Position numbers: made by a program. 7,863 nt of DNA from a virus (Duplodnaviria > Heunggongvirae > Uroviricota > Caudoviricetes), in the IMG/VR virus record IMGVR_UViG_2713896897_000001, positions 1 to 7,863 of that record. One strand, 5' to 3'. The first letter of the stretch is position 1; each line of letters starts with the position of its first letter. Shown one piece after another: positions 1-3,000 of the stretch.

Positions 1-3000
1 ATTCTGAGTGGGTAAGCCACGGTGCAATCTGGAATAACCCACCGTACAGCAATATCAGGCCGTGGGTAGAAAAAGCAGCTGAGCAGTGCATACAACAGCG
101 ACAGACGGTAGTGATGCTTGTGCCAGAGGATATGTCAGTCGGATGGTTCAGCAAGGCTCTGGAGAGCGTTGACGAAGTTCGCATCATCACTGATGGACGG
201 ATTAATTTTATCGAACCATCGACGGGGCTGGAGAAGAAGGGAAACAGCAAAGGCTCAATGCTGCTGATTTGGCGACCGTTCATCAGTCCTCGACGGATGT
301 TTACTACCGTATCCAAAGCGGCATTGATGGCGATCGGGCAGGGCGTCAGGAGGGCGGCATGAGGCGACAGCGACGAAGTTTCACCGACATCATCTGCGAA
401 AACTGCAAATACCTTCCAACGAAACGCTCCAGAAATAAACGCAAGCCAATCCCAAAAGAATCTGACGTAAAAACCTTCAACTACACGGCTCACCTGTGGG
501 ATATCCGGTGGCTAAGATATCGTGCGAGGAAATAAGGGGATTGACGCGATGATTTATCCGGGGCTATATTCCCAGCACGCCAGCAAAATCTGGCGTCGGG
601 ATTGGCGTCCCGGATAGAGACCGCGACAGACACACGCCGCGAGCGTGTTTTTTTATTGTCGAATGCACGCGCACATCTGAATTATGGTGGGCTGTGTGGG
701 GGCGGAGAGATCCGCGCCGGTCGGTTTCCCGGTTACGCCAACCCTGCGCAGTTCACCACCAGACGATTGGCGTCGTCGGTGGTGAGTTATTTAGAAACCA
801 CTCGAGGGCGTCATTATGACAACTCAAATCTCTGTTGAAACTCTCTCCCCGATCACCCATAACCAGATTCCTGTTATCACCACCGAACTTTTGGCGCAGC
901 TTTATGACACAGAAATTCTGAATATCCAGGTTAACTTCACCAGAAATAAAGAGCGTTTTGTCGAAGGAAAGCACTTTTTTAAAGCAGTGGGTGAAGAATT
1001 AAAAAATTTGCGACTTACTTTAAGTAAGTCACAAAATCACATCTCTCCCAAAACCCGCTCCCTCATCCTCTGGACAGAACGAGGCGCAGCCCGTCACGCC
1101 AAAATGCTCGAAACCGATCAGGCGTGGGATGTGTTCGAAAAACTGGAAGACTGCTATTTCAGGCAGTGCAAGAAAAATACTGGCAAACAAGAGAAGAGCA
1201 CCAACGAGCTTTCCGCAAAAGAAGCAAACAGCCTTGTATGGTTATGGGATTATGCCAACCGCTCACAGGCATTATTCCGCGAACTGTATCCGGCATTAAA
1301 ACAAATTCAATCGAACTATTCCGGCAGATGCTACGACTACGGTCATGAGTTCTCGTATGTTATTGGAATGGCGAGAGATGTTTTAATCAACCACACACGA
1401 GATGTTGATATCAATGAGCCAGACGGACCAACAAATCTTTCCGCATGGATAAGGCTTAAGAACAAAGAATTACCTCCTTCACTGCATCGCTACTGACAAT
1501 TGACAACTTAACAAACCCAGCTTCGGCTGGGTTTTTTATTGGTGAATTTTCAATATGAGAGGACATGACAATGAACGAGCTGATAAATAGCAATGTCATC
1601 AAAATGACTAGCATTGAAATCGCTGAGCTTACAGGTAAGCGTCATGACAATGTGAAACGTACCATCGAAACGCTGGCTAAAAATGGTGTTATCCGGCTTC
1701 CTCAAATTGAGGTTTCCGAAAGAATCAATAACTTAGGGTTCAATGTTCAGTACGAGCATTACGTCTTCGAAGGCGAACAAGGTAAGCGAGATAGTATTGT
1801 TGTTGTTGCCCAGTTGTCGCCAGAGTTCACCGCTCGTCTTGTTGACCGTTGGCGAGAGCTTGAAGAAGCTGCGGTTAATATCCCCAAAACGCTACCAGAA
1901 GCGTTGCGCCTTGCTGCTGACCTTGCTGAGCAGAAAATGCAACTGGAAAACCAGCTCGCAATTGCCGCACCTAAAGTTGAGTTTGCCGATCGCGTTGGCG
2001 AGGCCAGCGGAATTTTGATTGGAAACTTTGCAAAGGTTGTTGGAATTGGTCCAAACAAACTGTTTGCGTGGATGCGCGATCACAAAATCCTTATTGCTTC
2101 AGGTTCCCGGCGCAATGTGCCAATGCAGGAATATATGGATCGCGGCTATTTCACAGTGAAAGAAACAGCGGTCAACACAAATCACGGAATACAGATATCG
2201 TTCACCACAAAAATCACCGGGCGTGGTCAACAGTGGCTGACCAGAAAGCTGCTCGATAACGGAATGCTGAAAGTAACAGGGGAGGCTGCTTAATGGCTAA
2301 ACCAGCGCGAAGGAAATGCAAAATATGCAAGGAATGGTTTCACCCGGCATTCTCAAATCAGTGGTGGTGCTGCCCGGAACACGGAACTCAGTTAGCACTC
2401 GAACTACAAAGTAAACAGCGAAAAAAAGCGGAAAAAGCAGCAGAGAAGAAACGGCGACGAGAGGAGCAGAAACAGAAAGATAAACTTAAGATTCGAAAAC
2501 TCGCCTTAAAGCCCCGCAGTTACTGGATTAAACAAGCCCAACAAGCCGTAAACGCCTTCATCAGAGAAAGAGACCGCGACTTACCATGTATCTCGTGCGG
2601 AACGCTCACGTCTGCTCAGTGGGATGCCGGACATTACCGGACAACTTCTGCGGCACCTCAACTCCGATTTGATGAACGCAATATTCACAAGCAATGCGTG
2701 GTGTGCAACCAGCACAAAAGCGGAAATCTCGTTCCGTATCGCGTCGAACTGATTAATCGCATCGGGCAGGAAGCAGTAGACGAAATCGAATCAAACCATA
2801 ACCGCCATCGCTGGACTGTCGAAGAGTGCAGGGCCATCAAGGCGGAGTATCAGCAGAAACTCAAATACCTGCGAAATAGCAGAAGTGATGCCGCATGACG
2901 TTCTCAGTAAAAACCATTCCAGATAACAAGGGAGAAGTCGCATGGGCATAAGAGAACTAAACCTCACCAAAGAACAGCACGATTGGCTGAATGGATGGCT

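Follow-up and report, generated by a model that had tools for sequence, protein, structure and literature searches.

What governs the antirepressor-like locus between ninE and ninG of a lambdoid prophage, and do its two genes form a single inserted module? We address these questions in a 7,863-nucleotide stretch of viral DNA (IMG/VR record IMGVR_UViG_2713896897_000001, positions 1 to 7,863), which is hereafter called the window. It spans 7.9 kb of a lambdoid prophage of the Escherichia coli type, from the late-early to the late region. The locus comprises ant, which encodes a protein with an ORF6N domain, and a second gene that resembles roi of phage HK022. An initial annotation of the same DNA had treated the two genes as one inserted unit. 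The explanation that we judge best is that an ant cassette controlled by IsrK- and C4-type RNAs lies beside an independent roi gene, wherein C4 would block ant, IsrK would counteract C4, and Ant would inactivate CI-type repressors. We give this reading a probability of roughly 0.75.

An inserted cassette beside a resident gene

The genes and boundaries that bear on the question are listed here.

359-535, plus strand: ninE (Pfam NinE, E 3.4e-42), the left flank of the slot
between ninE and the open reading frame (ORF) at 816-1496: a stretch of about 270-280 nucleotides (nt) without an annotated gene
546-1549, plus strand: the inserted cassette, delimited by blastn against HK022, containing a promoter-like site, leader RNAs, ant and a terminator, and replacing ninF
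816-1496, plus strand: ant, 226 amino acids (aa), with ORF6N and P22AR_C domains
1513-1540, plus strand: the intrinsic terminator of the cassette (terminator scan), with a 9-bp GC-rich stem, a TTCG loop and a T-run
1565-2293, plus strand: the roi orthologue, 242 aa, with Rha and KilAC/ANT domains
2293-2898, plus strand: ninG (Pfam NinG, E 6.6e-89), the right flank, translationally coupled to roi

Comparison with HK022 by blastn defines the edges of the insert. The ninE region of HK022 is 95% identical in nucleotide sequence to window positions 351-545, where homology stops. It restarts at 1550, only 15 nt upstream of roi, and continues at 89% nucleotide identity to 2300. In HK022 the gap between these two blocks is occupied by ninF, and therefore the insert corresponds to positions 546-1549. 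This limits the inserted DNA to the ant cassette and leaves roi as a resident gene, so the single two-gene module of the initial annotation does not survive. The terminator that the annotation had placed after the ORF6N gene is indeed present and strong.

Could ant and roi nevertheless have entered as one unit whose two products act together on repressors of other prophages? The genes are adjacent, both products carry domains that are associated with antirepressors in Pfam, and trans-acting antirepressors that target the repressor of another prophage have been published. Moreover, positions 536-2293 are covered to at least 80% in 437 of 5426 complete E. coli genomes (~8%) and in 144 phage records, mostly of Shiga toxin (Stx) phages, so that the pair frequently co-occurs. 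Each gene is also found without the other. HK022 has roi and lacks the cassette, IsrK and C4 altogether, whereas Stx phage PA2 and the prophage Gifsy-1 carry the leader and an ORF6N gene at other genome positions without roi. A strong terminator separates the two genes in the window, the HK022 homology resumes immediately before roi, and Roi itself was reportedly characterized by experiment only as a DNA-binding protein (Clerget & Boccard 1996). We consider a joint insertion improbable. There are two independent units in this nin region, one an insulated ant cassette and the other a separate, resident roi.

The initial annotation had also stated that its reading would fall if the same two genes occurred at this position in lambda-like nin regions with an established structural role. 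They do stand here in many lambdoid (Stx) phages; their role is regulatory and not structural.

The terminator annotated for P22 ant has exactly the hairpin of the cassette terminator (ACCCAGCTTCGGCTGGGTTTTTT). Thus the cassette is, judging from its sequence, itself recombinant, with a 5′ half formed by a Gifsy-1/P1-type leader plus an ORF6N domain and a 3′ half formed by a P22-type ant end. Leaders of the C4 type are found in front of diverse cargo. Among the cargo genes are those for ORF6N proteins that differ in their C-terminal region (at least five kinds), for Rha and Bro-N proteins, for a protein of the ‘Derepression’ family and for small Icd-like proteins.

A leader with IsrK- and C4-type RNAs

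By its predicted elements, the leader is a P1/Gifsy-1-type antisense-RNA device that would govern ant. The following elements were recognized, all upstream of the ant start codon.

541-570, plus strand: predicted sigma-70 promoter-like site, TTGACG-18 nt-TATATT (consensus scan, 10/12 matches)
564-616, plus strand: c4-a1b1 motif, an upstream copy of the C4 targets (Rfam RF03163, 50.7 bits against a gathering score of 46.7)
577-657, plus strand: IsrK-type short leader RNA (Rfam RF01394 at 577-653, 77.3 bits against 50, E 1e-15)
602-608, plus strand: a1, TTGGCGT, in the loop of IsrK hairpin 2
617-623, plus strand: b1, GAGACCG, within IsrK
632-657, plus strand: IsrK intrinsic terminator (stem 632-648 plus U-run; terminator scan)
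686-760, plus strand: C4-type antisense RNA (Rfam RF01695 at 680-763, 64.6 bits against a gathering score of 45)
723-728, plus strand: b′, GGTTTC, in the loop of C4 hairpin 2
735-741, plus strand: a′, ACGCCAA, in an internal single-stranded stretch of C4
767-773, plus strand: a2, TTGGCGT, the exact complement of a′ (7/7)
794-799, plus strand: b2, GAAACC, the exact complement of b′ (6/6)
804-808, plus strand: Shine-Dalgarno sequence GAGGG, ahead of the ant ATG at 816

All three leader RNA families exceed their curated Rfam gathering scores, and the promoter-like site is placed like PisrK of Gifsy-1 and P1c4 (P51b) of P1. The initial annotation began its unit at position 816, so about 270 nt of upstream non-coding sequence were omitted; its genes stand, and the promoter-like site, IsrK, c4-a1b1 and C4 were missed.

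A further stretch that resembles these sites is located inside the ant ORF. Compared with 753-772 (the 3′ end of C4 followed by a2), positions 877-896 (TCACCACCGAACTTTTGGCG) show 80% identity, and they include TTGGCG, or six of the seven bases of an a-site. This likeness is probably coincidental, because the segment encodes a conserved ITTELLA motif.

Covariation of the pairing sites

To the exact-anchor-pattern hits from IMG/VR we added P1, Gifsy-1 and the window, which gave 124 C4 loci with 79 distinct leaders. There are only six types of a′ heptamer among the 124 loci, and an exact 7-nt complement of a′ is present both upstream (a1) and downstream (a2) in 122 of them. When leaders are compared with non-cognate partners, exact complements of a′ appear in 41 of 4458 comparisons. 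Phage PA2 provides a seventh a′ type, GTTCGAA, accompanied by TTCGAAC. The b′ sequence is far more varied, with more than 20 types, and b1 and b2 match it; the longest complement of b′ has a mean length of 7.7 nt in cognate pairs and 5.3 nt in non-cognate pairs. In a 75-sequence leader alignment, b2 always adjoins the Shine-Dalgarno sequence of the first downstream gene. The C4 fold is likewise supported by compensatory changes, which are found at 12 of its 24 pairs among 37 distinct C4 sequences.

A short ORF in the leader?

In the Gifsy-1 work (PMC4825925), the isrK promoter drives isrK-orf45-anrP, and anrP is transcribed but translated only when IsrK is supplied in trans, with ~140-fold activation. 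An alternative for the window is therefore that control is exclusively positive and of the Gifsy-1 style: IsrK in trans would open an inactive fold, the equivalent of orf45 would be translated, and ribosomes reaching its stop would re-initiate at ant; the C4-like segment would not itself act as a repressor. Direct experimental support for this model exists in Gifsy-1, whose leader closely resembles that of the window. A 41-codon ORF in another frame (694-819), which begins with GTG and ends in ATGA over the ant start, would also suit re-initiation.

The ORF that corresponds to orf45 fits less well. It begins at the conserved ATG at 684, has 33 codons, and stops at 783-785, which is 30 nt before the ant ATG. 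The 45-codon ORF coupled through ATGA is retained in only 7 of 30 distinct ORF6N-type leaders, and the reading frame 3′ of the conserved ATG is not conserved across leaders. Because the ORF has just 33 codons here and the coupled version is kept in so few leaders, the data suggest that what is conserved at 684-819 is the RNA and not a gene. ATG 684, the orf45 start in the Gifsy-1 work, lies inside conserved GAATTATGGTGGG at the 5′ edge of the C4 RNA. It falls within a 13-nt stretch that was fixed by the locus search pattern, so its presence in P1-type leaders is not independent evidence. There is no icd-like small ORF between b2 and ant, since b2 and the Shine-Dalgarno sequence lead straight into the ant ORF. 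Icd-like ORFs are found in other C4 loci, not in those of the ORF6N type. Thus, the translational-coupling step of Gifsy-1 probably does not apply here.

The segment is moreover a bona fide C4 RNA, with covarying stems and with a2/b2 targets at the ribosome-binding site. In Gifsy-1, basal translation was high in a′ mutants, and repression came back only in part when a1 carried compensatory changes (PMC4825925), a result that also counts against purely positive control. Partial restoration is what C4 repression predicts, because a′ would also have to pair with a2, which was unmutated. We regard exclusively positive control as rather unlikely.

The Ant protein

Three parts of the protein can be delimited.

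aa 12-97 (nt 849-1106), plus strand: ORF6N domain (Pfam, E 1.4e-20)
aa 126-198 (nt 1191-1409), plus strand: P22AR_C (P22_AR_C) domain (Pfam, E 8e-30)
aa 123-226 (nt 1182-1493), plus strand: P22-Ant-like stretch of 104 aa

The predicted product is that of a chimeric antirepressor gene. The first 125 aa resemble AnrP of Gifsy-1 (66% identity), and the last 104 aa resemble residues 197-300 of P22 Ant (91% identity; tblastn, blastp). The initial annotation had called the ORF6N domain correctly, and its proposed HMM search for ORF6N, Rha and KilAC returns significant Pfam matches in both proteins. The C-terminal ~100 aa, which it could not recognize, are in fact one of the best-known antirepressor domains. 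Over its full length the protein is 87% identical to Ant of CP-1639 and 73% to Ant of Min27 (phi24B-like). It matches phrog_377 (‘anti-repressor Ant’) with E 4e-82, and an identical protein is encoded on 162 database contigs, where it is named phage antirepressor Ant.

The studied relatives of this protein promote induction. Gifsy-1 AnrP induces its prophage (Hershko-Shalev et al. 2016, PMC4825925). In phi24B, ant is located upstream of roi in the nin region and is weakly expressed in lysogens, and its knockout reduces late expression from pR′ to ~30% after norfloxacin (Fogg et al. 2011, PMC3064807; Smith et al. 2012, PMC3430580). Min27, whose Ant is near-identical to that of phi24B, carries IsrK and C4 ahead of ant. 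The antirepressor label that the initial annotation gave to this gene is upheld by the P22 Ant domain and by these two relatives.

Structural resources add little. No PDB sequence matched Ant or the roi product at E up to 1, and no NCBIfam model fits either protein. AlphaFold2 gave an unusable model of Ant (mean predicted local distance difference test score 38.9, predicted template modelling score 0.27) from a 25-sequence alignment, which was too shallow because all homologues supplied were at least 86% identical.

Several other observations concern ant sequences. The ORF contains a 29-nt near-perfect palindrome at 1007-1035, TTTGCGACTTACTT A AAGTAAGTCACAAA, where the ORF6N domain has a variable linker. 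The palindrome has 14-nt arms that are 93% complementary; it was also scored as a minus-strand terminator-like hairpin, and could be a protein-binding site or a product of chance. In VT2-Sakai, the Stx2 phage of O157 Sakai, the match to the ant homologue (3780-4506) is split over two reading frames (3780-4142 and 4141-4506), which suggests a frameshift in ant, and the record names only a 171-aa ‘hypothetical protein H0107’ for it. The Stx2a_WGPS6 record lists a partial antirepressor pseudogene.

The roi gene and its coupling to ninG

The second gene encodes two domains, as the initial annotation had proposed.

aa 14-101 (nt 1604-1867), plus strand: Rha domain (Phage_pRha, 37.4 bits, cutoff 29.9)
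aa 128-230 (nt 1946-2254), plus strand: KilAC/ANT domain (Pfam, E 8e-33)

Its product is 87% identical in amino acid sequence to HK022 Roi over 242 aa and 81% identical to Min27 Roi. The likeness to the HK022 roi locus that the annotation had pointed out is thus one of orthology. The coupling to ninG that it had described is present as well: the roi TAA overlaps the ninG ATG by one base (TAATG, 2291-2295). A consensus scan found no promoter between the terminator and the roi start. The ORF at 1565-2293 is a roi orthologue and a resident gene of the nin operon that would not be under the control of the cassette.

The function of Roi need not be that of an antirepressor. The only experimental characterization of Roi reportedly describes a DNA-binding protein and not an antirepressor. 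HK022 Roi reportedly binds within its own gene beside an IHF site and prevents lytic growth when IHF is mutated. DNA binding is also the general prediction for both ORF6N and Rha domains. These points raise the possibility that one or both proteins of the locus are sequence-specific DNA-binding regulators or host-toxic proteins of the Kil type. The C-terminal region of the roi product is 59% identical to P1 Ant1 and 67% identical to P1 KilA, a host-killing protein, and the KilA-C domain of phi11 Gp07 is reported to inhibit growth. For Roi this is the better-supported reading, and nothing argues against it. For ant it has to contend with the 91% identity of the C-terminal domain to the archetypal antirepressor of P22 and with the fact that the two nearest studied relatives, Gifsy-1 AnrP and phi24B Ant, enhance induction. 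Taken for the locus, we put it clearly short of even odds.

How the cassette might work

The mechanism that we favour joins the observed identities, boundaries, RNA family memberships and pairing-site covariation to what would be expected from homologues, namely an active promoter, the processing of C4 from its precursor (by RNase P in the P1-type unit), repression of translation in trans, and binding of Ant to repressors. In a lysogen, transcripts from the promoter-like site at 541-570 would mostly end at the 632-657 terminator and yield an IsrK-like RNA with a1 and b1. Those that read through would give rise to the C4-type RNA (686-760), whose exposed a′ and b′ sequences would base-pair with a2 and b2, immediately ahead of the ribosome-binding site of ant, and turn off ant translation. 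The a1 and b1 sequences of IsrK may compete for the same a′ and b′ sequences of C4, and therefore the IsrK:C4 balance would set the amount of Ant. For the same reason, more IsrK would let Ant be made. So would induction, when antiterminated transcription from pR may read through both terminators. Ant is then predicted to bind CI-type repressors non-covalently and speed the derepression of its own, and possibly of co-resident, prophages. Meanwhile the 1513-1540 terminator would insulate the cassette, and roi would be expressed with ninG from the nin operon.

Several points weigh against this explanation. First, the 541-570 site is a consensus match, and such sites are no more common here than in shuffled sequence. 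Second, the b′/b2 duplex is short in the window (6 bp, ~-10.5 kcal/mol), and b2 ends 4 nt before the Shine-Dalgarno sequence, unlike b2 of P1, which overlaps it. Crude duplex energies also fail to separate the b pairing of the window from pairing with Gifsy-1 b2, so we claim no heteroimmunity between the two. Third, P1 and P7 have a coupled icd-like ORF of which the window shows no counterpart. Fourth, mutations of a1 in cis raised translation in Gifsy-1 instead of lowering it (PMC4825925), a result that a pure model of IsrK as a decoy does not predict. Fifth, the repressor of this prophage is encoded outside the window, and binding of the chimeric Ant to any repressor is a prediction. Finally, deletion of ant from phi24B had no effect on superinfection immunity (PMC3064807; PMC3430580).

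This last result bears in the same way on the idea that the cassette is a moron for anti-phage defence or superinfection exclusion. The promoter-like site and terminator of its own do give the cassette a moron-like build, and PADLOC reported matches of the ORF6N domain to the candidate system PDC-S05 (best E 3.8e-08). However, these matches are weak and limited to that domain, PDC-S05 is a candidate system only, and its partner genes are absent. Since PADLOC gave nothing beyond these matches, we rejected the defence reading, which strikes us as very improbable.

A possible common interpretation of IsrK and C4

The leader of the window suggests an interpretation that extends to the known systems. 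Perhaps IsrK of Gifsy-1 is a terminated a1b1 leader and orf45/STnc1160 is a C4 antisense repressor, wherein IsrK acts as an anti-antisense decoy that titrates C4, orf45 is no conserved gene, and the leader-bearing genomes of E. coli have an RNA-level immunity network. We hold this tentatively, at slightly less than even odds. The pairs published for Gifsy-1 agree with the proposed elements, because IsrK G28:C162 and G31:C159 map exactly onto a1:a′, and G114:C175 maps onto the C4 closing stem. In P1, the record annotates a1, b1, c4, a2 and b2, with b2 overlapping the icd ribosome-binding site, and C4 represses icd/ant translation through a2/b2 (P1 record annotation; 2025 review). The Gifsy-1 paper (PMC4825925) does not mention P1 c4, and the 2025 review lists both systems separately. 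The proposal concerns the interpretation of known systems and not a new kind of element. If it is true, the network could couple or insulate antirepressor expression, and hence the induction of Stx phages, between prophages in one host according to the a′/b′ types that they share.

Distribution and annotation of the leaders

Of 5426 complete E. coli genomes, 2484 (~46%) contain detectable members of the leader family, between one and six each. A report of 2010 described C4 and c4-a1b1 as motifs that are widespread in Proteobacteria and phages. A scan of species-representative genomes with the exact C4 pattern yielded six loci, although this pattern is too strict to show taxonomic spread. Its anchor was derived from enterobacterial phages. 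Exact anchor matches also occur in metagenome-assembled genomes labelled Gillisia, Spirochaetaceae and Pirellulales, for which contaminating contigs are one possible explanation.

In E. coli Z1323CEC0010, RefSeq shows no RNA feature over the IsrK/C4 leader (12535-12812). In other genomes, coding-sequence calls for an ‘ash family protein’ or an ‘Icd-like’ protein overlie the homologous leader stretch. Because the leader RNAs are unannotated or overlaid in the RefSeq records examined, the control of antirepressors in lambdoid and Stx prophages is easily overlooked. The locus itself is an ordinary one: the ant-roi pair of Stx phages, the named Ant protein and the three curated Rfam families are all already known. 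It matters because Ant-type proteins modulate the speed and strength of prophage induction, including that of Shiga toxin phages, and gating of ant by C4/IsrK would offer a concrete and testable handle on prophage cross-talk.

Other features of the window

Outside the locus, the window carries the following features.

window start, before ninE: C-terminal part of a Dam methylase
2942-3430: Q
3522-3677: tRNA-Asn (GTT) and tRNA-Thr (TGT), spaced by 5 nt, just 3′ of Q
after the tRNA genes: holin, lysozyme and Rz
5161-5709: a third antirepressor-type regulator with Rha and ORF11CD3 domains (phrog_518), between the lysis genes and Nu1
5897-6091, minus strand: a DUF3950 (YlcI/YnfO-like) gene, opposite in orientation to the 5161-5709 gene
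window end: Nu1, then the start of the large terminase subunit gene

Parts of the window are shared by 5300 of 5426 complete E. coli genomes, and coverage of at least 80% is reached in only two genomes. This match pattern is the usual lambdoid mosaic. Q follows ninG almost directly (2898-2942), with ninH and the serine/threonine phosphatase genes absent; in the closest E. coli relative, these genes separate ninG from Q. The same two tRNA genes are present in the same order in P1 (trnA, trnT; P1 record 24349-24502). An Rfam scan of the window revealed no IsrK or C4 leader ahead of the 5161-5709 gene.

Comparison with known systems

The closest counterpart of the leader is isrK-orf45-anrP of Gifsy-1 (PMC4825925), which it matches element for element. 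Both have an IsrK RNA with a terminator, a promoter in the same place (TTGACA, 18-nt spacer, TATATT in Gifsy-1; TTGACG-18-TATATT in the window), a C4-like segment (STnc1160/orf45′), the ACGCCAA type of a′, and an a2 site. In both, the downstream gene begins with the same nine codons (MTTQISVET), and the ORF6N domains are 66% identical. The two differ in that the C-terminal region of AnrP is unrelated and lacks a Pfam match, whereas the window protein has P22AR_C. The b′/b2 specificity is CGGTGAT in Gifsy-1 and GGTTTC in the window, and the coupled 45-codon ORF is broken in the window. In Gifsy-1 the locus lies downstream of Q and ends with the IsrJ small RNA, whereas the window cassette is located between ninE and roi and ends with a P22 ant-type terminator; the Rfam search at E up to 1 gave no isrJ match in the window, including at the 3′ end of the operon.

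The immI region of P1 and P7 (c4-icd-ant) shares the order promoter, a1, b1, C4, a2, b2 and ribosome-binding site, as well as the C4 fold, the covarying pairing logic and an antirepressor as cargo. However, it includes a C1 operator, which is missing from the window, and its cargo is Ant1/2 on a plasmid prophage and not an ORF6N/P22AR_C protein in a lambdoid nin region.

Stx phages of the phi24B/Min27/933W group have the same slot (ninE...ant, roi, ninG), the same domain architectures and an IsrK plus C4 leader, and the ant-roi arrangement of CP-1639 is like that of the window. In contrast, the window prophage has no stx, and Q is followed by tRNA-Asn and tRNA-Thr and then by the lysis genes. 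It also lacks ninH. The identities of Ant and Roi are at the level of allelic variants.

With immI of P22 (arc-ant-sar, mnt), the window shares the C-terminal 104 aa of Ant and the ant terminator hairpin. P22 Ant has P22_AR_N in place of ORF6N at its N terminus, and its control is by Arc, Mnt and sar, whereas the window has IsrK/C4. Finally, HK022 Roi has the same Rha plus KilAC architecture and the same position after ninE/ninF. In HK022, roi comes immediately after ninF, and a tblastn search of the stretch examined detected no ninG, whereas the roi gene of the window follows the ant cassette and is coupled to ninG.

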